From: a virus
Reading direction: 5' to 3' (one strand)
UHGV virus genome: UHGV-0120184
Length of the DNA stretch: 14,793 bases
The notes below the pieces were generated by a model, which was given only the letters and a program-made list of their open reading frames with translations, ran no database searches and was not told the DNA's origin. Shown here piece by piece: positions 7,373-14,753 of this stretch. Position numbers and translations under genes: made by a program. Each line of letters starts with the position of its first letter. Positions within the stretch are counted from its first letter, which is position 1.

Positions 7373-7675
7373 ATGCATCCTTGCCCATACTGCGGAGCAA
7401 GTACCCGCACCAGAACAAGCCGCGACGCCAACGATACAGGAACAATCAGGGAGAAATATTACCAGTGCAACAACATTGAATGCAGCGCCACCTTTGTGAC
7501 GCACGAGTTTGTCGTGAGAACCGTATGCCGTCCGCAACCCACCGAAGAACGGGGAGTCGTCCCCGCAGACGCTTTCAAATCATGCCACCGGGGAAGGGAT
7601 CAACTCAGCCTCCCCCTGGGCGATTGCGCCTCCCAGTCAAAAACTGTACATTACGCGCGGGTGCCTTTCGGCTGA
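7373..7675 (+). CDS. ogr: Ogr/Delta-type zinc-finger late transcription activator, with a C-terminal extension relative to the ~72-aa P2 Ogr
   Basis: MHPCPYCG...(22 residues)...CNNIECSATF reproduces the CxxC-N22-CxxxxC Ogr finger (P2: CPLCQ...CQNVNCSATF). GGGGGA lies upstream of the ATG. The gene follows gpD directly, as in P2. Confidence 0.88.
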   Translation: MHPCPYCGASTRTRTSRDANDTGTIREKYYQCNNIECSATFVTHEFVVRTVCRPQPTEERGVVPADAFKSCHRGRDQLSLPLGDCASQSKTVHYARVPFG

Positions 7676-7805
7676 CGGCTGGAAGGATTACCTGAAGGCC
7701 GGATGTGGAAAGGCCCCGGAAAACATCTCTGTTTAGCCGAGGCCCTAATCTACATATCTTTAGCAAGTAGAAGGTTAGCGCCTCTTTGAAAAAGGAGCAA
7801 GCGCT

Positions 7806-7946
7806 ATGCCGCAAAAAACGATCATCGTGAGCATTTTATGCTTAACCATGTTGTTGACCGTCTGGATGATACATCGTTCACCATGTGAATTCAGACTTAA
7901 CATCATGTGGTCAGAATTTGCGGCGTTCTTGCAGTGTAAACCGTAA
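7806..7946 (+). CDS. Hok/Gef/PndA-family type I toxin-like small membrane peptide (46 aa), below the ORF-track length threshold
   Basis: The translation is MPQKTIIVSILCLTMLLTVWMIHRSPCEFRLNIMWSEFAAFLQCKP. AGGAG lies 8 nt upstream. It has an N-terminal TM helix followed by S.CE.R and ..AAF. Compare PndA (MPQRT...VWMVRDSLCGLRL) and Hok ([21 protein letters not shown]), both recalled from memory. Confidence 0.7.
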   Translation: MPQKTIIVSILCLTMLLTVWMIHRSPCEFRLNIMWSEFAAFLQCKP

Positions 7947-8041
7947 GAAACCGCAGCGGGGGTGAAAGCCCCCGCTATCCGGTTGCCGAAGGTTCGGTCG
8001 AAAGCCGCACCCGTGCATGCAAGTGACAAAGAAAAAACAAA

Positions 8042-8071
8042 GCCCGCAGCGTAAAAACTGCGGGCTTTTTT
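8042..8071 (+). terminator. Rho-independent terminator closing the hok-like transcription unit
   Basis: Stem GCCCGCAG (8042-8049) / CTGCGGGC (8058-8065) with an 8-nt loop, followed by TTTTTT (8066-8071). The A-rich run upstream (8031-8041) could let it work on the minus strand too. Confidence 0.75.
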
Positions 8072-8112
8072 ATTCACATACCGAAGGTGTGGTAACTGCC
8101 TGGGTTCAGACC

Positions 8113-8136
8113 AAAAAAAGCCCCATAAAATGGGGC
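8113..8136 (-). terminator. Rho-independent terminator on the minus strand
   Basis: Stem GCCCCA (8120-8125) / TGGGGC (8131-8136) with a 5-nt loop. On the minus strand it is followed by TTTTTTT (complement of the A-run 8113-8119). It lies about 300 nt downstream of the minus-strand AT-rich operon. Confidence 0.55.
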
Positions 8137-8432
8137 TGAAGATTCTGTAAGGAATTTCACAGCAATGAGATTCTAGTCTCTTCCAATGATATATGAGTCT
8201 TCAGCCTGAATCAATGGGGCATGACTGTGAATCCACCGACGATCAAAACTTGCACAATGCCTGAAGTTGAGTTAGAAAAGTACCGGGCGCGATATCCGGT
8301 TTATTTTTTGTTGCTGTGTTTTGCCTCGTGCCGGATATCGCGTCCACCGTTTTTCTGATGATTCTTATGAAATCGTACTTTATTGATTTACTGCCATCCT
8401 GGTTTGTCTTTTTATGTTCATTATTGCGACAG

Positions 8433-8828
8433 TCATTTCCTGTTTCTGGTGATGTTTTGATAAAAGTGAAAGAATAAAACGATCATTGCAGAAGGTATTG
8501 CTAAAACCATACATATCATTATATAAACAAGATGAAAATGATATATACCATAAGACCAGAAAAAAGGTTTTTTCCAGAATGATATGGATGTGTATTTTAG
8601 TGTAATTGTTTTTGTCAGGTATATTGAACAAGGAAGAGCCAGGCCACTGAGTATCAGAAATAAGTCAACTTTTATCGATGCTTCTGTTGGTGTGTCATAT
8701 ATAAGATGCAATATGGATATTATAATGGGGCACATTCCCCACAGGATATTTTTGAAATAGAATTTCCGGTTCATATGTTTATGCTCTTTGGTTTTATCCC
8801 GGGAATTGGCGCTTTGTTTTTTATTCAT
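8433..8828 (-). CDS. Small integral membrane protein (131 aa, about 4 predicted TM segments), function unknown
   Basis: Hydrophobic segments include ILWGMCPIIISILHLIY, LFLILSGLALPCSIYL, FFWSYGIYHFHLVYIMICMVLAI and PSAMIVLFFHF. Its ATG (8828-8826) overlaps the upstream stop as ATGAATAA. Composition is very AT-rich. Confidence 0.6.
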   Translation of the reverse strand: MNKKQSANSRDKTKEHKHMNRKFYFKNILWGMCPIIISILHLIYDTPTEASIKVDLFLILSGLALPCSIYLTKTITLKYTSISFWKKPFFWSYGIYHFHLVYIMICMVLAIPSAMIVLFFHFYQNITRNRK

Positions 8829-9492
8829 GAACGTTTTCGTTGTTTAATAACCATGGGGTATTATGATTATCCTTTATTTTTGATATGTAATTGTCAATAG
8901 TGGATTTCGTTTCATTATTGTGGTTATAGTAATCATGAAGAGTGCAAAACACATCATCTTTTATTGTGGCGATTAATGGGGCTTGTGTGAGGGTAAAATA
9001 TAAAGAACGATTACTTAGTGTCCTGAAATAAATTTTTTCGCCAATGACCAGATCGGTGTTCATTATATTGTAGCCTATTTCAAATATATTGTTTGATGGC
9101 ATGTGTAATACATATGTGGGGTATTTGTTGTGTTTTTTCATTAAATAATAAATAAAATCAGATACAGGCATCTGTTTTAGTTTTTTTTGCATCTTCCTTA
9201 TGTGTTGTGACATTAATATCATTTTCGAGAGAATGCATAAGAGACTAAACAAGAGATTAAATACTATGTTCAGTACTATCAGAGTAACAAACAGGCCAAT
9301 GCTCCTTAGCGCTGAAAATATATTGTCATTGTAAATATACTGGAATGTATATCCGGCTGATAAAAATGCCAATATATATAACACTATGTCTGTTTTATTT
9401 CGCTTTTTTATTTTGTAGGTTATTGCTGATTTTAAGAATAAGATGGCAATAAGAGCAGTGATAACCCAGAAAAATATAACGGAAACTTCCAT
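8821..9492 (-). CDS. Membrane-anchored protein (223 aa: three N-terminal TM segments plus a soluble C-terminal domain of about 125 aa), function unknown
   Basis: The TM segments are VIFFWVITALIAILFL, IVLYILAFLSAGYTF and LFVTLIVLNIVFNLLFSLLCIL. An N/K/Y-rich domain follows. AAAGG lies 7 nt upstream of ATG 9492. This is the first gene of the two-gene operon. Confidence 0.6.
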   Translation of the reverse strand: MEVSVIFFWVITALIAILFLKSAITYKIKKRNKTDIVLYILAFLSAGYTFQYIYNDNIFSALRSIGLFVTLIVLNIVFNLLFSLLCILSKMILMSQHIRKMQKKLKQMPVSDFIYYLMKKHNKYPTYVLHMPSNNIFEIGYNIMNTDLVIGEKIYFRTLSNRSLYFTLTQAPLIATIKDDVFCTLHDYYNHNNETKSTIDNYISKIKDNHNTPWLLNNENVHE

Positions 9493-9542
9493 AATTATAC
9501 CTTTATCGTGTTTTCAGGGAGGTAATTTATCATTGTGCTGAT

Positions 9543-9562
9543 ATGCATGTAAATACATGCAT
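9543..9562. promoter_or_regulatory. Perfect 20-bp palindrome ATGCATGTAAATACATGCAT in the leader of the AT-rich operon (operator or 5'-UTR hairpin candidate)
   Basis: Two 9-bp arms ATGCATGTA / TACATGCAT separated by 2 nt. The palindrome begins 51 bp upstream of ATG 9492. Confidence 0.4.
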
Positions 9563-9694
9563 TATCTGTTTCTTATATTCTTTTTATGAAGTTACTGATT
9601 AATTTATATTAAAACAACACATTCATAATGAAATCAACATGTTCATATGGTTGACGGCAGATTTCTCTTTTTGTTAACCTGCATCTGCATTAAC

Positions 9695-9939
9695 TGTCGC
9701 TTCGGCGACCACCAATGTTCCATAGTGGCCTGTGAGGAACGCCTTCGGGTGGCCCATGTCGCTCCGGCGACCACCAATGCTCCATATGACCTGTGAGGAG
9801 CGCCTTCGGGTGGTCAGTTTTACACCTCCGTAGCCTGAAAGGAGCTGTGAGTACTGAAGGGAAACATCCCTGATGTATGGGCAAATCTGCACACCTTTGA
9901 GAGCAGATGTCACTACGGTTTTACGTGATGATGAAGGCA
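9695..9939. repeat. Direct repeat copy A (245 nt) containing tandem units 9696-9757 (62 nt) and 9758-9817 (60 nt)
   Basis: It aligns base-for-base with 12489-12733 and differs by 3 T/C transitions (9702, 9878, 9914). The shared motif taac lies just upstream of both copies. Confidence 0.95.
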
Positions 9940-9941
9940 TT

Positions 9942-9971
9942 CCGGATTCCGTTCCGGTACTTTTATTTTTT
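9942..9971 (+). terminator. Small rho-independent terminator immediately 3' of repeat copy A
   Basis: Stem CCGGA (9942-9946) / TCCGG (9953-9957) with a 6-nt loop, then tac and TTTTATTTTTT (9961-9971). The stem is short, so confidence is modest. Confidence 0.45.
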
Positions 9972-10117
9972 CTCAGCAGACAGGCATAAAAACGCCTTTA
10001 AAATCTGCGTCTTAAGATATTTTCTGACTTTCCGCATGAGCTTCTTATGACTGTGCGCACGGCATAAGACCATTTGAAATTTGGTCGCTTGCGTGTGCAT
10101 GTGGAGTTTGAAGCTGT

Positions 10118-10163
10118 GCGGCGTCACTTGCGTGCGACCGAAGGGAACACCAAGTGACGCCGC
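10118..10163. other. 13-bp perfect inverted repeat (long hairpin) in the 743-nt untranslated region upstream of the recombinase gene
   Basis: GCGGCGTCACTTG (10118-10130) / CAAGTGACGCCGC (10151-10163) with a 20-nt loop. A second composite hairpin lies at 10285-10320. Confidence 0.6.
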
Positions 10164-10682
10164 GGCCATCTGCCCTGAAGGCAGCATCACGTAAGGTCTG
10201 GCAGAAAATCGTCGCTCGTGACAAGCGTCCTGATGCTCGTTTTGTCGCTCTGACAACGTCTTTCGGTGACGTATCCACGCCTTTCCGGCGCGTCCGTTTT
10301 CACACGGACGGCCACGCCGGAATGTCTTCTTAAACTTCGTAATACATGAGAGGTAAGTGTATTAACTGACTGAAATAAAGGAATAAAAATGAAAAATCGT
10401 TCTGATGTCGGGAGGCGTCATCGTAAGGTGACGGGGAGTATTCCTCAACAATCGCCCTGGTGCACAGGTAGCGAACTCCTGTAAGAACTCAACATGTGCA
10501 AGCTCTGCTACATCGACATCAAACGAGCCAGGAAGGCGAACAACCGCGTTACAGAGCCGTCCGTGATGACGAAAAACTAACAATATCAACGAACTTTTCT
10601 GTTTACCGGAAGGGCTGCGTATGCAGTTTTACTTTGTGAACGGAAGGGGGCTGCATCTGATTTTTACAGGGAGAATGACTTT

Positions 10683-11600
10683 ATGGCCCGGAAATCGTCA
10701 CGTTCTAAAGTTGAACTGTTTCGCAAGTCTTTCATCTCACTTGCCCGTGAGTGTGGTGGCAGTTACGCAACAACAGCTGACAGAATGAGAATTGCAAAGT
10801 ACTTCCTGAATTATTTACGTGAAAATGGAATTAAACTTCGCCAGACGAGCAGTATTAAAACCAGACATATTTCTGGTTACCTTCTCAGCAGGAAAGCAGC
10901 GGGTATTTCTCACCGGACTATTCAGAATGAACGGGCGGTTATGCGTGCCATTTTAGAAAAAGATGGACGACTTAAAATCGCAGATCCTTCTAACCCATTA
11001 TTGAGTAATGAAGCGCTCGGCCTAAAGGATACATGCCGTGATGGAAAGAAAATAGCATTGTCACCGGATGAATTCTGGAAAGCATTTGCTAAAGTGGAAA
11101 AAAAGAATCCTGGTGTGGCAGCTGCAATGCAGCTTTCTTATGTTCTGGGTTTAAGAACAAAAGAAGCCGTTCAGTCATGTAAGTCTGTTCAGTCATGGCT
11201 ACGGGAACTGAATTCAGGGTGCGATTCTCTTTCGGTCGTTTTTGGTACGAAAGGTGGAAGACCAAGAAATACCACAATTATTGACAGAGATGCGGTAAGA
11301 CATGCTTTGCTTTATGCTCAAAAAATAATGGATGAACACGACGGAAAACTTATTGACCGTCCAAATATAAAACAGGCTATCAATGTTTTTCGTTATCATG
11401 CCCGTAAAGCGGGATTGTCAGGAGTGAAATCTCCGCACAGTATGCGTTATCATTTTTCTCAGGAAGCCAGAAAATTTTATCGAAAAAATGGATATGGAGA
11501 GTCGGAAATCTACGCTCGTGTTTCTATGGATCTTGGCCATGGTGACGGAAGAGGTCGTTATGTAAAACAGGTTTATTTTAACGGTTCTGATGAAAGTTGA
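10683..11600 (+). CDS. Tyrosine recombinase / integrase-like protein (305 aa) with a SAM-like N-terminal domain
   Basis: The full catalytic signature is readable: R in YVLGLRTKEA, K in FGTKGGRPR, H-x-x-R in HSMRYHF, H in LGHGDGRG, and candidate nucleophile Tyr in GRYVKQVY. It resembles the proteobacterial family annotated as integrase domain-containing protein (from memory, not searched). Confidence 0.8.
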   Translation: MARKSSRSKVELFRKSFISLARECGGSYATTADRMRIAKYFLNYLRENGIKLRQTSSIKTRHISGYLLSRKAAGISHRTIQNERAVMRAILEKDGRLKIADPSNPLLSNEALGLKDTCRDGKKIALSPDEFWKAFAKVEKKNPGVAAAMQLSYVLGLRTKEAVQSCKSVQSWLRELNSGCDSLSVVFGTKGGRPRNTTIIDRDAVRHALLYAQKIMDEHDGKLIDRPNIKQAINVFRYHARKAGLSGVKSPHSMRYHFSQEARKFYRKNGYGESEIYARVSMDLGHGDGRGRYVKQVYFNGSDES

Positions 11601-11603
11601 TAT

Positions 11604-12341
11604 TTAAAATGAATCTGGAGGATATGTGTTTTTGTTAATTTCGGTTATGATGATTTCTGATGCGCGATTACACATATCTTCATCAAAATACCCAATATGA
11701 CATTCATGAATGTGACAATTCAGTTTTCTGGATAGCCATATATTTGCCTCGTTACGGGATATGTTGGCTCTTTGCTGATAATTGTCAAAAAGTTTACGTA
11801 CTTTTGTTCTGAGTATTCTCAGGTTTTCTTTAGCCGGAGTACCTAATGGTCTTCCTGAGTTTTTATGGCATCCAACCCATGCATTGCATGGGGGACAAAT
11901 CCAGTAATATTTGTTTTCTGTCGCGGCTGAAATGGAAAATGGCATGAGAGCCCCTTTTATAAGATTCGTCTTATTTCCACAGTATGGGCAGATAACAATT
12001 GGTCGGACATCTGCAATATTCAGTGATGTATAAGTCAGTCGTTCATTTTTAACGATGTTTCTCTTTCCGCAATGGGTGAGAACATGCTTTATTGTATCTA
12101 ATTCTTCTCGTAGTATTTTGGAACTGACGCCAGTGCGATAACGTTGTTGAAAATAGCATTCAATATGACGTAGTTTTATGCTATTTGCTGAGCTTATCTG
12201 TATATTGGCATCTTTAAGAAATGAAGCAAGTCTTCTGGCTCTTCCCGTATATACCAACATATCTTCTGGCGTCGGGGCGCATGCTTTGGCTATTCTGAGT
12301 AGTTCATCTTTTAATTTTTTGTATTTCGATTTCATTTTCAC
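11604..12341 (-). CDS. Recombinase N-domain paralogue fused to a Cys4 zinc ribbon (245 aa); no catalytic domain
   Basis: Its N-terminal part aligns with the N-terminal part of the 305-aa protein: NSIKLRHIECYF vs SSIKTRHISGYL, and GVSSKILREELDTIKHVL vs GISHRTIQNERAVMRAIL. The C-terminal half has CPYCG..(29 residues)..CPPCNAWVGCH, then RPLGTPA..LR..R. This resembles the zinc-ribbon family I recall as DUF3268 (needs an HMM check). Confidence 0.7.
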   Translation of the reverse strand: MKMKSKYKKLKDELLRIAKACAPTPEDMLVYTGRARRLASFLKDANIQISSANSIKLRHIECYFQQRYRTGVSSKILREELDTIKHVLTHCGKRNIVKNERLTYTSLNIADVRPIVICPYCGNKTNLIKGALMPFSISAATENKYYWICPPCNAWVGCHKNSGRPLGTPAKENLRILRTKVRKLFDNYQQRANISRNEANIWLSRKLNCHIHECHIGYFDEDMCNRASEIIITEINKNTYPPDSF

Positions 12342-12488
12342 ATCTCTCTTACAGGTTCATAAAGAGTGTTACTGAATTAAAAAATATCAAATTGAGCTGG
12401 CCTTGTCAGTCAGCTGTAGGTTATTACCATAGCCACGACAACAACTTGAAGTTTTATGTTGTTTATGATTATATTTTAGACGCTAACT

Positions 12489-12733
12489 TGTCGCTCCGGC
12501 GACCACCAATGTTCCATAGTGGCCTGTGAGGAACGCCTTCGGGTGGCCCATGTCGCTCCGGCGACCACCAATGCTCCATATGACCTGTGAGGAGCGCCTT
12601 CGGGTGGTCAGTTTTACACCTCCGTAGCCTGAAAGGAGCTGTGAGTACTGAAGGGAAACATCCCTGATGTACGGGCAAATCTGCACACCTTTGAGAGCAG
12701 ATGTCACCACGGTTTTACGTGATGATGAAGGCA
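12489..12733. repeat. Direct repeat copy B (245 nt) containing tandem units 12490-12551 and 12552-12611
   Basis: Same orientation as copy A, with 242 of 245 positions identical by manual alignment. Confidence 0.95.
12489..12733 (+). ncRNA. Candidate structured ncRNA or leader, copy B
   Basis: Same structure as copy A. There is a sigma70-like TTGAAG (12446-12451), an 18-nt spacer, then TATATT (12470-12475). This predicts a start within a few nt of the repeat's 5' boundary. No terminator follows this copy. Confidence 0.4.
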
Positions 12734-12866
12734 CTTTGTATACAATGTGACTATGAGTTGTCTCTGGTCTTCTTAAGCGCATCGTGCTGACGCATTGATG
12801 TGTTCACCTGACGGATTTTCCAGTCCGTCAGGGCGGAACGTCCGTCTTTTTCATTCGGAGGTTCCG

Positions 12867-13268
12867 ATGTTTATACCACTTTTGTTACGTGCAGATATGC
12901 GCATAACGCCTTTCTTTCATCTTCTCAGACAATGTCTGTTTAATCAGAAGCGTTGTGTTCACCCACAACAGCCCTGGTCCGCTCCACAACTGAGGCATCT
13001 GTACTGCACTCCGTGGTTTATTAACGCCACCGGCAATCTGTCAGTCAGAGCCTGCATTGTTTCCACCAACGGTGCATTGCGACACTGCTTTGAGTTCCGT
13101 GAAGGCTCTCACAGCCGTGAATATCGTTACTGGTTTGAGGCACTTCCGCTGTCTGTCGTGCGGTTTAATGTCTTTACCGGTCGAATATCTGCTCGCCGCA
13201 CGCTTTCTGCTGCCTCCCGTATGGCCGTGCAGCTTACTTCTTTTCGCTATCGCTTCGGTCTTCGCTGA
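12867..13268 (+). CDS. Hypothetical basic, Cys/Trp/Arg-rich protein (133 aa from the internal Met); coding status doubtful
   Basis: GGAGG lies 5 nt upstream of ATG 12867. A hairpin (13278-13296) follows the stop. The composition is odd and the region is hairpin-rich, so it may be non-coding. Confidence 0.3.
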   Translation: MFIPLLLRADMRITPFFHLLRQCLFNQKRCVHPQQPWSAPQLRHLYCTPWFINATGNLSVRACIVSTNGALRHCFEFREGSHSREYRYWFEALPLSVVRFNVFTGRISARRTLSAASRMAVQLTSFRYRFGLR

Positions 13269-13379
13269 AGCCTGTTGAACGGTCGTCATGACCGTTGAAA
13301 GGTTTATCACACAACGCCCGGATCTGTCTGACCGTACCACGCGTGCGCGATGACAAATCTGAGTTTTCCTTAACCCGTC

Positions 13380-13417
13380 CGGGACCGCTCCCGTTCGGGG
13401 ACGGTCCCGCTGTTTTT
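13380..13417 (+). terminator. Strong GC hairpin plus T5 run immediately upstream of the next gene's RBS (terminator or attenuator)
   Basis: CGGGACCG (13380-13387) / CGGTCCCG (13402-13409), with an inner UCCC-GUUC-GGGG helix. It is followed by ctgTTTTTa. AGGAG at 13421-13425 and ATG 13433 follow. Confidence 0.55.
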
Positions 13418-13432
13418 ATCAGGAGATTGTTT

Positions 13433-13813
13433 ATGGGACTCGATATTTTTTTCCTTGGGCGTGATCGTGTTACCGACGCGGTAGTATCGGTACCGGAAAC
13501 GCGGGAAGTGGGTTACTTTCGCAAGGTTAACCCACTGATTGCCTGGTTTGAGACGCATTGTGGACCGGTTGAAAATGCCGTGGAGCGTCCGGTTTCCAGA
13601 ACGGAACTGGAGGCACTACTGAGCGATCTTGAATGCCTTACGCCGGAGAACTGCCGGGAATTCTTCCCCACAACAGAAGGATTCTTTTTTGGTTCTCAGG
13701 AGTATGACCAGTATTACTGGAAGGATGTTGAGATCGTGAAATCGTGGGTCAGAAGCACGCTTGATTCGTTTGATTTTGAACGAAAAATACTGTTGCTCTG
13801 GGCATGGTGGTAA
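13433..13813 (+). CDS. Hypothetical protein (126 aa, MGLDIFFLGRD...LLLWAWW)
   Basis: I chose the internal Met of the 13295..13813 ORF because AGGAG lies 7 nt upstream and the upstream part is occupied by the hairpin/terminator. A terminator follows. A remnant paralogue of its C-terminus lies at 14434-14508. Confidence 0.65.
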   Translation: MGLDIFFLGRDRVTDAVVSVPETREVGYFRKVNPLIAWFETHCGPVENAVERPVSRTELEALLSDLECLTPENCREFFPTTEGFFFGSQEYDQYYWKDVEIVKSWVRSTLDSFDFERKILLLWAWW

Positions 13814-13851
13814 TTATTTTTCTGTCCTTGTTTTTAACCTTATTACCCTGT

Positions 13852-13896
13852 CGGGAACATGTGTCCCGTAGGGCAGGTGTGTTCCCGTAATTTTTT
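13852..13896 (+). terminator. Rho-independent terminator after the 126-aa gene
   Basis: CGGGAACA (13852-13859) / TGTTCCCG (13880-13887) followed by taaTTTTTT (13888-13896). An alternative inner pairing uses TGTCCCG. Confidence 0.55.
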
Positions 13897-13913
13897 GTAT
13901 CTGAGGTGAACAC

Positions 13914-14393
13914 ATGAATAGTCTGTTAATACTCCTTTACGTTGTTGTATGCCGTGCCTGCACCATTCTTCGGGTAATCGCACCAGTGTCGTCTGTCCGT
14001 GCGTGGTGTGAGTATCAACTGGAAGGTATGACGATACTTCGTGATGCGTACAGCTCGCTGGCTAAGGCGGCTGGAATGCAGAATGATGCATTTGAATATC
14101 TTGAAAGTATTGCTCGTCATCTGGGCTACGAAAGCGGTGGTGACCAACTGAAATCAGGACTTTTCCGGCCGTTTCTGTGGCATATACGTGCGAAAGGCCA
14201 CAGGCTGGGAGCTGTCATGGAAATGGCGGTATGGCAGGCATGGAAGAATGGCTGTAACGATGTCTGCAATCCATGGGAGGATGTCTACAATCCATGGGAC
14301 CGTGGATGGAACGATGGCTGGACTGAATGTCTGGATCAACGTATAGCCGGTCTCCTGAAGGCGGTCTGTATTGACTTTTCCGACGCCGACTGA
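13914..14393 (+). CDS. Hypothetical protein (159 aa) with a hydrophobic N-terminus and a W/N/P-rich C-terminal segment (CNPWEDVYNPWDRGWNDGW)
   Basis: GAGGTG lies 5 nt upstream of ATG 13914. I recognise no family. Confidence 0.5.
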   Translation: MNSLLILLYVVVCRACTILRVIAPVSSVRAWCEYQLEGMTILRDAYSSLAKAAGMQNDAFEYLESIARHLGYESGGDQLKSGLFRPFLWHIRAKGHRLGAVMEMAVWQAWKNGCNDVCNPWEDVYNPWDRGWNDGWTECLDQRIAGLLKAVCIDFSDAD

Positions 14394-14433
14394 ACGGTTT
14401 TTCTTTTACTTACTGTACCGTGTACCTGCGTCG

Positions 14434-14508
14434 GTGGCGTGGGTCAGCGATACGCTGAAGACGTTTGATTTTGAGCGTCATTCACTGGTGATGCTGGCGT
14501 TGTGGTAA
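14434..14508 (+). pseudogene. Remnant of a paralogue of the 13433..13813 gene (C-terminal ~24 codons only)
   Basis: The translation VAWVSDTLKTFDFERHSLVMLALW* matches VKSWVRSTLDSFDFERKILLLWAWW* at the end of the 126-aa protein. The frame is open only from 14359 and has no start codon. Confidence 0.55.
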
Positions 14509-14600
14509 GTCCGGCCAGTCTGATTTTCGTTATTAATTTAACCGTATGGTGCATGTTCACCGTACGGGGAGCATGCATCTTTTTTATGGAGCGTGCTCTT

Positions 14601-14753
14601 ATGAAAACGAAAAAACATACTTCATGTCCCGTGAACAAAACCCCGGAGCGTGACCTGTATCAGCTGGTGACGGACAGGGTGATTGAGGCCATCGAAAAGG
14701 GCGTAGCCCCCTGGCAACGTCCATGGCGCTCAGTACGGTGTCAGCGCCAGTGA
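14601..14753 (+). pseudogene. ArdC-like (DUF1738-type) anti-restriction/ssDNA-binding protein, N-terminal ~50 codons only; truncated
   Basis: MKTKKHTSCPVNKTPERDLYQLVTDRVIEAIEKGVAPWQRPW matches the hallmark DLYQ.VT..II..LE.G..PW..PW N-terminus. A stop occurs at 14751-14753, whereas full-length proteins are about 300 aa. No frame continues to the window edge. Confidence 0.5.

Follow-up and report, generated by a model that had tools for sequence, protein, structure and literature searches.

Both copies of a repeat in the window are copies of a known RNA, STAXI (Rfam RF01728). The window is the whole stretch of DNA that was analysed, 14,793 nt of the virus genome UHGV-0120184. An Rfam scan at gathering thresholds gave three matches, two to STAXI and one to EFASI (RF02957). 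The STAXI matches lie on the plus strand at 9695-9868 (copy A; 78.2 bits, E = 2.4e-15) and 12489-12662 (copy B; 75.5 bits, E = 1.1e-14), against a gathering score of 40.5, and both span model positions 1-153 of 153. Together with the covariation in homologues, these scores put the feature far beyond chance. Other Rfam families gave only noise in a permissive-threshold scan of the window. An initial annotation, made from the sequence alone, had proposed a novel structured RNA. Its observation is confirmed, as the units, the hairpins, the repeat and their coordinates are all present in the sequence. Its interpretation is partly supported, and the claim of novelty falls to the Rfam scores.

STAXI was described by Weinberg et al. 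(2010; Genome Biol 11:R31, PMC2864571). It is presented there as a pseudoknot in two or three repeats, and its neighbours include genes for Ssb, topoisomerase, anti-restriction proteins and XerDC-type integrases. By that account, it might function as single-stranded DNA, yet its UUCG loops favour RNA, and the question was left open. The window copies agree with the family in their full-length matches, pseudoknot units, UUCG loops, Enterobacterales host and gene neighbourhood. Each copy has two full pseudoknot units and a degenerate third, and a sense-strand UUCG loop closes P2b in all four window units. The neighbouring genes are an Integrase_1 gene (10683-11600), ArdC after copy B, and topB and DUF3577-ssb at a third copy outside the window. 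Three features differ from RF01728: the E. coli copies keep a P1 hairpin in unit 2, which is an insertion relative to the Rfam model, the element is ~75 nt longer, and each copy has its own promoter.

EFASI is found where Rfam describes it (quoted in PMC12370729), several hundred bases 3' of STAXI and 5' of integrase genes: STAXI at 9695-9940 is followed by EFASI at 10397-10525 and by the integrase gene from 10683. It is a separate structure, and only copy A has one. As copy B lacks EFASI, STAXI does not depend on it.

As the motif has been catalogued since its 2010 description and is present in Rfam, the repeat is not a discovery. Its remaining value is that it bears on the question of RNA or single-stranded DNA, through three results: a promoter at fixed distance, a 12-to-1 excess of G-U over A-C, and a fold on the sense strand. 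In addition, a fuller anatomy (3' domain, three operon classes, concerted evolution, G-poor linker and leaders that sequester the Shine-Dalgarno sequence) makes STAXI experimentally testable. This anatomy is relevant to the control of ssb, integrase and anti-restriction genes in widespread enterobacterial islands. The features of the window are as follows.

9651..9680 (+): predicted sigma-70 promoter of copy A, TTGACG at 9651-9656, 18-nt spacer, TAACCT at 9675-9680
9695..9940 (+): STAXI copy A, full element (Rfam match, covariation, 3' domain conserved across genera)
9695-9756 (+): copy A unit 1 (62 nt), with P1, pseudoknot stem, P2a and P2b
9696-9700/9705-9709 (+): unit 1 P1, GTCGC-TTCG-GCGAC
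9717-9721/9736-9740 (+): unit 1 pseudoknot stem, GTTCC/GGAAC
9727-9730/9751-9754 (+): unit 1 P2a
9741-9743/9748-9750 (+): unit 1 P2b, with UUCG loop
9757-9817 (+): copy A unit 2 (~60 nt), pseudoknot stem GCTCC 9779-9783 / GGAGC 9797-9801
~9823-9882 (+): copy A degenerate unit 3
9885-9890/9903-9908 (+): copy A P4
9910-9917/9924-9931 (+): copy A P5
9933-9938 (+): copy A 3' tail, GAAGGC
9941-9960 and 12734-12753: G-poor linkers after copies A and B
9942..9971 (+): terminator-like hairpin after copy A, CCGGA-TTCCGT-TCCGG (9942-9957), then a T-rich run
10397..10525 (+): EFASI motif RF02957, 72.3 bits against a gathering score of 51.2, 5' of the integrase gene
10683..11600 (+): Integrase_1 (PF12835) + Phage_int_SAM_2 gene, 305 aa, downstream of copy A and EFASI
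12446..12475 (+): predicted sigma-70 promoter of copy B, TTGAAG, 18-nt spacer, TATATT
12489..12733 (+): STAXI copy B, architecture of copy A at an offset of +2794
12807..12866 (+): gene-specific part of the copy B leader, hairpin 12807-12815/12824-12832, terminator-like hairpin 12830-12848 with T-run
12867 (ATG) to 13268 (+): gene after copy B, start per RefSeq annotation
9674..9940 (-): open reading frame over copy A, 88 aa, RefSeq hypothetical protein WP_016237203.1 in NZ_CP075852
12483-12782 (-): open reading frame over copy B, counterpart of 9674-9940

Secondary structure and covariation

Homologues were collected in two ways. A pattern scan of species-representative genomes gave 103 loci in ~25 enterobacterial genera, and iterated nhmmer gave ~142 elements. 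Their common architecture is a short 5' tail, P1 with one pseudoknot unit, a degenerate third unit and a 3' domain of ~75 nt. A hand-drawn structure of 53 pairs in 11 helices was scored on 34 diverse elements. The paired cells reached 93.0%, compared with 35-54% when the partners were slid. Compensatory changes occurred in 38 of the 53 pairs, and 0 of 500 shuffles reached the observed values; because the aligned sequences have common ancestors, these shuffle statistics exaggerate how independent the changes are. Even so, the comparison with slid partners and the range of pair types remain persuasive. The covariation yields a fold with a P1 hairpin and an H-type pseudoknot unit, the degenerate third unit, P4 and P5.

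Pseudoknot stem: The initial annotation had pointed to a 5-bp stem which covaries between the two units, GTTCC/GGAAC in unit 1 and GCTCC/GGAGC in unit 2, where C9780-G9800 replaces the U-A pair. The 'C80-G800' of that annotation is a misprint for C9780-G9800. This stem is the published pseudoknot of STAXI. In the 34 homologues, 98.8% of its cells are paired and four of the five pairs show compensatory changes, with variants including GUCAG/CUGAC, GCCUG/CAGGC, GUUUC/GAAAC and GAUCC/GGAUC. The proposed covariation is borne out by these homologues.

P2a, P4 and P5: These helices are paired in 99.4%, 97.1% and 94.7% of cells, respectively, and the majority of their pairs covary. P4 and P5 belong, together with the loop-tail pairing described next, to the conserved 3' domain of ~75 nt, which lies outside the reach of the Rfam model. 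Neither this domain nor the fixed-distance promoter was found in the 2010 text (PMC2864571).

P4 loop and 3' tail: The P4 loop (ACCUUU) is complementary to the 3' tail (GAAGGY), with 90.9% of cells paired. One position covaries, U-A to C-G in 12 of 105 aligned cores. The P2b loop is a possible competitor for the tail. The cases that discriminate between the two loops, namely these 12 sequences and nine with AAAGG tails, favour the P4 loop. A pseudoknot between the P4 loop and the 3' tail is hence probable from the alignment.

Tandem units: Units of 62 and ~60 nt, each with the hairpins GUCGC-UNCG-GCGAC and CGCC-UUCG-GGUG, are present as had been noted. The loop of the first hairpin is TTCG in copy A unit 1 and TCCG in the remaining three units, and the second hairpin (CGCC-TTCG-GGTG) occurs in all of them. 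The tandem duplication itself holds for the window but is lineage-specific, as most homologues have a single hairpin-plus-pseudoknot unit and a further unit occurs in some lineages.

Unpaired motifs: CCAAUG and CUGNGA are unpaired and invariant across genera in the alignment. The AUG within CCAAUG lacks a Shine-Dalgarno sequence and opens only short reading frames of varying length and frame in the alignment, inspected by eye. A hammerhead-like core (CUGANGA) was also considered and rejected, as the GAAA and the three-stem layout are missing in the alignment.

Together with the tandem pseudoknots, the strong promoter and the terminator after copy A, the invariant unpaired motifs would suit a decoy or antitoxin-like RNA, in which repeated pseudoknots sequester a protein as in ToxI-ToxN or CsrB-CsrA. 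ToxI shares the promoter, the tandem pseudoknot repeats and the terminator. In ToxI, nearly identical units of ~36 nt precede the gene of a ToxN-type nuclease. STAXI units, in contrast, measure ~45-62 nt and are usually single, with one full unit in most homologues. Among the scanned genes downstream of STAXI, the proteins belong to DUF3577, to Integrase_1 or to no family; no nuclease family and no ToxN/AbiQ-type endoribonuclease gene was found after the repeats. CsrA binding was rejected as well, as the GGA triplets lie paired inside the pseudoknot stem and are not conserved (GACUGAC and GACAGGC at the equivalent place). We consider a decoy function improbable.

Long-range pairing: The pairing GACCACC/GGUGGUC had been put forward as an alternative to the local hairpins, with switch-like potential. 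The complementarity is real in the window copy and appears in its minimum-energy fold, and a riboswitch-like element would set downstream expression by exchanging the two states. Across homologues, however, the pairing lacks covariation: 76.7% of cells are paired compared with 76.9% in shuffles, and 312 of 500 shuffles reach the observed value. The helices with which it would compete covary strongly, and the expression platforms downstream differ among operons. A table in PMC2864571 rates STAXI 'n' in the last of three columns, taken as the riboswitch column. A switch of this kind is very doubtful. The sequence CACCUCC, earlier read as anti-Shine-Dalgarno-like, is specific to the E. coli variant and forms the 5' strand of the pseudoknot stem of the third unit.

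Minus-strand reading frames: No Pfam family was found for the minus-strand reading frames over STAXI. What is conserved is the RNA pairing, while indels occur and the number of units varies; this argues against a protein-coding reading of this strand and agrees with the earlier view that conservation is at the nucleotide and not the protein level. The overlapping minus-strand frames are probably false gene calls.

Promoter position and folded strand

We anchored 113 unique elements on the first hairpin and sought the best sigma-70 match from -100 to +10. In 108 of the 113, this match ends 12-15 nt 5' of P1; the distance is 14 nt in 72 elements and 15 nt in 23. The -35 hexamer is TTGACA, TTGACG or TTGACC in ~73% of elements, and the spacer is 17-18 nt long. 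The mean promoter score of 11.2 exceeds those of random windows (4.4) and of the reverse complement (6.6), and 90% of elements scored above the random 95th percentile. Per position, the -35 hexamer carries 1.57 bits of information and the -10 hexamer 1.14, whereas the spacer has 0.17 and the sequence upstream 0.14. Among the 55 distinct spacers, mean identity is 30%. The hexamers are conserved amid surroundings whose similarity does not exceed that of random sequence. In copy A, the -10 hexamer ends 15 nt upstream of the first hairpin and the predicted start is at ~9687. The promoter earlier suggested at the 5' boundary of copy B is likewise found (TTGAAG-18-TATATT). From the position and orientation of these matches, rightward transcription is predicted for each window copy, driven by a sigma-70 promoter of its own whose end lies 14-15 nt 5' of the first hairpin.

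The structural alignment of the 34 elements contains 166 G-U or U-G cells compared with 14 A-C or C-A cells, and P2b has one G-U pair that never varies. UUCG forms the loop of P2b in 32 of the 34 sequences. The G-U excess and the promoter orientation both support the plus-strand structured RNA of the initial annotation. As the promoter position, the G-U excess and the UUCG loops agree, STAXI would form the extreme 5' domain of a plus-strand RNA. The evidence argues for a 5'-terminal RNA rather than single-stranded DNA.

Frpo and ssi single-stranded DNA promoters of F-like and IncI plasmids belong to the leading region, beside oriT, and precede ssb, anti-restriction and similar establishment genes. 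Both they and STAXI are repeated non-coding elements of ~250-330 nt ahead of establishment genes of conjugative elements. A function of STAXI as such a promoter, or as a priming site in conjugative transfer, would fit its place ahead of ssb, integrase and anti-restriction operons, and the island genes point toward the relaxase end. Frpo, however, rebuilds a promoter by means of a long hairpin in the DNA of the transferred (template) strand. STAXI folds on the sense strand, in agreement with the promoter orientation, whereas a single-stranded DNA promoter must lie on the template strand. Moreover, it is an RNA driven by a normal duplex promoter, which lies at fixed distance outside the conserved structure, and no inverted repeat was found over the -35 and -10 hexamers at 9651-9680 or 12446-12475. 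C(UUCG)G loops stabilize RNA (PMC2864571). A single-stranded DNA function is accordingly the reading to which we give the least credence, bordering on none.

Two reports touch on expression. In RNA from E. coli vesicles, both STAXI and EFASI were detected by RT-qPCR, with strand specificity not stated (PMC12370729), which is weak evidence for STAXI expression. Two cDNA clones described from SPI-7 of S. Typhi (PMC2943607) could be STAXI fragments: StyR-137 is 46 nt long, has two copies and is called 'antisense to ORF t4317', and StyR-101 is 45 nt long.

Sequences downstream of the element

In the first 20 nt 3' of the tail, G is scarce (8-15%) and U and C abound; C exceeds G in 89% of 82 unique homologues. 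This linker could be a site for processing, for Rho loading or for binding of a chaperone. A terminator-like site within 60 nt is present in 13 of 105 elements, copy A (9942-9971) included, where the terminator proposed earlier is confirmed as a hairpin at 9942-9957 with its T-run. In 48 further elements, such a site lies at 61-150 nt. For most elements, what follows is a leader particular to the gene and, 40-750 nt away, a gene on the same strand.

The main rival of a cis-acting leader is a free-standing small RNA, the type that Rfam assigns, which would arise through termination or through cleavage within the G-poor linker and would act in trans on RNAs or proteins. The terminator-like hairpin directly after copy A fits a free-standing RNA and counts against the leader, and so do the small ColE1-like plasmids on which no same-strand gene follows. 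The strong, near-consensus promoter, the G-poor, U/C-rich linker suited to processing and the detection in vesicle RNA also speak for a free-standing RNA. On the other hand, only 13 of 105 elements have the terminator-like site close by, the majority run straight into a gene leader, and a conserved unpaired seed with an identifiable target was not found. We regard the free-standing RNA as unlikely but worth keeping in view; the decoy, switch and single-stranded DNA readings are less likely still.

In minimum-energy folds of several downstream leaders, the Shine-Dalgarno region is paired with an upstream complement, e.g. GUGUUUCC...GGAGAAACAC. Copy B has a comparable arrangement, in which CGGAAC (12834-12839) is complementary to GUUCCG (12861-12866), which adjoins the Shine-Dalgarno sequence GGAGG (12857-12861). 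By these predicted folds, the leaders look like a translational on/off device. An earlier GGGAAACAC in such leaders is a possible competitor for the complement of the Shine-Dalgarno region. The leaders concerned are as follows.

L088, ~2101-2210: predicted leader with sequestered Shine-Dalgarno region
L007, ~10959-11050: predicted leader with sequestered Shine-Dalgarno region
Window, 12834-12866: comparable arrangement after copy B

Genomic context and concerted evolution

Window positions 7639-14738 are 99.7% identical to part of an SPI-7-type island in E. coli S19-651 (NZ_CP075852). This island, inserted at a tRNA-Phe gene, is ~82 kb long if its length is estimated from where ParA and the integrase are encoded. 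It carries parA, an SPI-7-type dnaB, parB, topB, ssb, UvrD, relaxase and integrase genes, together with a TIGR037xx-type transfer system and type IV pilus genes. Three STAXI copies are present, all on the gene strand, and the genes are oriented toward the relaxase end. Copy A is followed by the terminator-like site, EFASI and the Integrase_1 gene. Copy B is followed by a run of small genes without assigned family, for which protein family searches gave no matches, and then by ArdC in the matching E. coli island. The third copy lies between topB and the DUF3577-ssb operon. Copies A and B differ at four positions over ~245 nt in the alignment, and their flanks are unrelated.

Across homologues, three classes of operon lie downstream: DUF3577-ssb, in which the DUF3577 protein is named STY4534-family ICE replication protein by NCBI; Integrase_1, at 560-745 nt with EFASI between; and small proteins without family. 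All three classes occur within one genome in E. coli, Serratia (two species), Pectobacterium and Trabulsiella. The order STAXI then EFASI is repeated at further loci, L002, L003 and L004 among them, with Citrobacter, Cronobacter and Pantoea represented. Gene order in these genomes shows STAXI as a putative modular leader, which heads up to three operons of SPI-7/ICEclc-type conjugative islands.

Of 5426 complete E. coli genomes, 606 contain STAXI-like DNA, each at 1-6 places, and some plasmids of Klebsiella, Pantoea, Erwinia, Serratia and Salmonella carry it too. No STAXI match was found in phage records. A REP/ERIC-like repetitive DNA family, which the initial annotation named as an explanation to be checked, was rejected: STAXI was found in conjugative islands or plasmids in every case examined, at 1-6 places per genome, and is not dispersed through the core chromosome.

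Identity is 79-85% between copies which head different operons within one genome, and 57-62% between copies from different genomes which head the same type of operon. The within-genome value was the higher one in 162 of 169 quartets (L001, L009 and 20 or more other genomes). Judged from these identities, the STAXI copies of an element undergo concerted evolution, which points to gene conversion, to selection for a match with a shared partner, or to a combination of the two.

The left part of the window, from 1 to ~7640, holds P2-like phage tail genes. Positions 7639-8074 are common to the phage and island contexts, and a hok/gef gene maps there in L001. A prophage adjoins the island segment in the source genome, at the side where S19-651 has transfer genes. 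Between the Integrase_1 gene and copy B, one further gene is encoded on the opposite strand.

11604-12341 (-): 245-aa protein with N-terminal Phage_int_SAM_2 and a DUF3268 zinc-finger domain

Proposed role of STAXI

STAXI would most likely exert its effect in cis once transcription has begun, as a module for control or protection that the long untranslated leaders have in common. Action after initiation is suggested because the promoters lack a conserved operator and the conserved part is transcribed. In enterobacteria, long, untranslated RNAs with a sequestered Shine-Dalgarno sequence are exposed to Rho and RNase E. As the leaders downstream of STAXI are of this kind, we favour a role in cis in which the element keeps RNA polymerase moving or the transcript intact in the face of Rho, intrinsic termination or decay, or docks one common factor. 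We give a cis-acting leader about an even chance of being correct. Its anti-termination version specifically is a tentative proposal, to which we attach clearly less confidence.

For anti-termination, the nearest comparison is with processive antitermination RNAs such as HK022 put and Bacillus EAR. These are also promoter-proximal structured RNAs heading long operons with terminator-like sites, and EAR has a pseudoknot. They share no sequence or structure similarity with STAXI, so the comparison would be by analogy only. Two further points weigh against the cis-acting leader. About 7-8 unpaired nt precede P1, whereas classical 5'-end protective hairpins have shorter unpaired tails. In addition, the concerted evolution could be plain gene conversion.

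More speculatively, STAXI may be a promoter-coupled RNA tag common to replication, establishment and anti-restriction operons of SPI-7/ICEclc-type islands, by which one factor, or the RNA itself through RNA polymerase, would switch all of them together, with anti-termination or an anti-Rho effect as examples; we hold this to be possible but unlikely. If true, STAXI would be the RNA counterpart of the single-stranded DNA promoters which F-like plasmids use for similar genes. A linked possibility is that the module, when carried on ColE1-like plasmids of 4-8 kb, lets them hitch-hike on islands.

Modules on small plasmids

The whole module of promoter, STAXI, spacer and EFASI occurs on ColE1-like plasmids of 4.4-8.4 kb which are typed 'non-mobilizable'. 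Their hosts are Cronobacter, Pantoea and Mixta, and a near-identical match is listed on a Kosakonia plasmid. The plasmid-borne modules are located as follows.

L002, 4150-4950: plasmid-borne module
L003, 1560-2380: plasmid-borne module
L005, 1950-2790: plasmid-borne module
L006, 6370-7160: plasmid-borne module

No Integrase_1 gene and no same-strand gene downstream was found with these modules. As a hitch-hiking device for islands, the module may serve as att or oriT. No mapped oriT for this island family was found in the literature, and the relaxase gene lies far to the right. The module is flanked by a DUF2442 gene and an HTH_17 (excisionase-like) gene. The spacer between STAXI and EFASI contains an inverted repeat in the window.

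10118-10163 (+): inverted repeat GCGGCGTCACTT / AAGTGACGCCGC in the STAXI-EFASI spacer

Six modules (E. coli, Citrobacter, Erwinia and three small plasmids) keep the arms of this repeat unchanged, while its loop varies. As the arms are invariant and do not covary, they suggest a protein-binding DNA site or a very constrained RNA.
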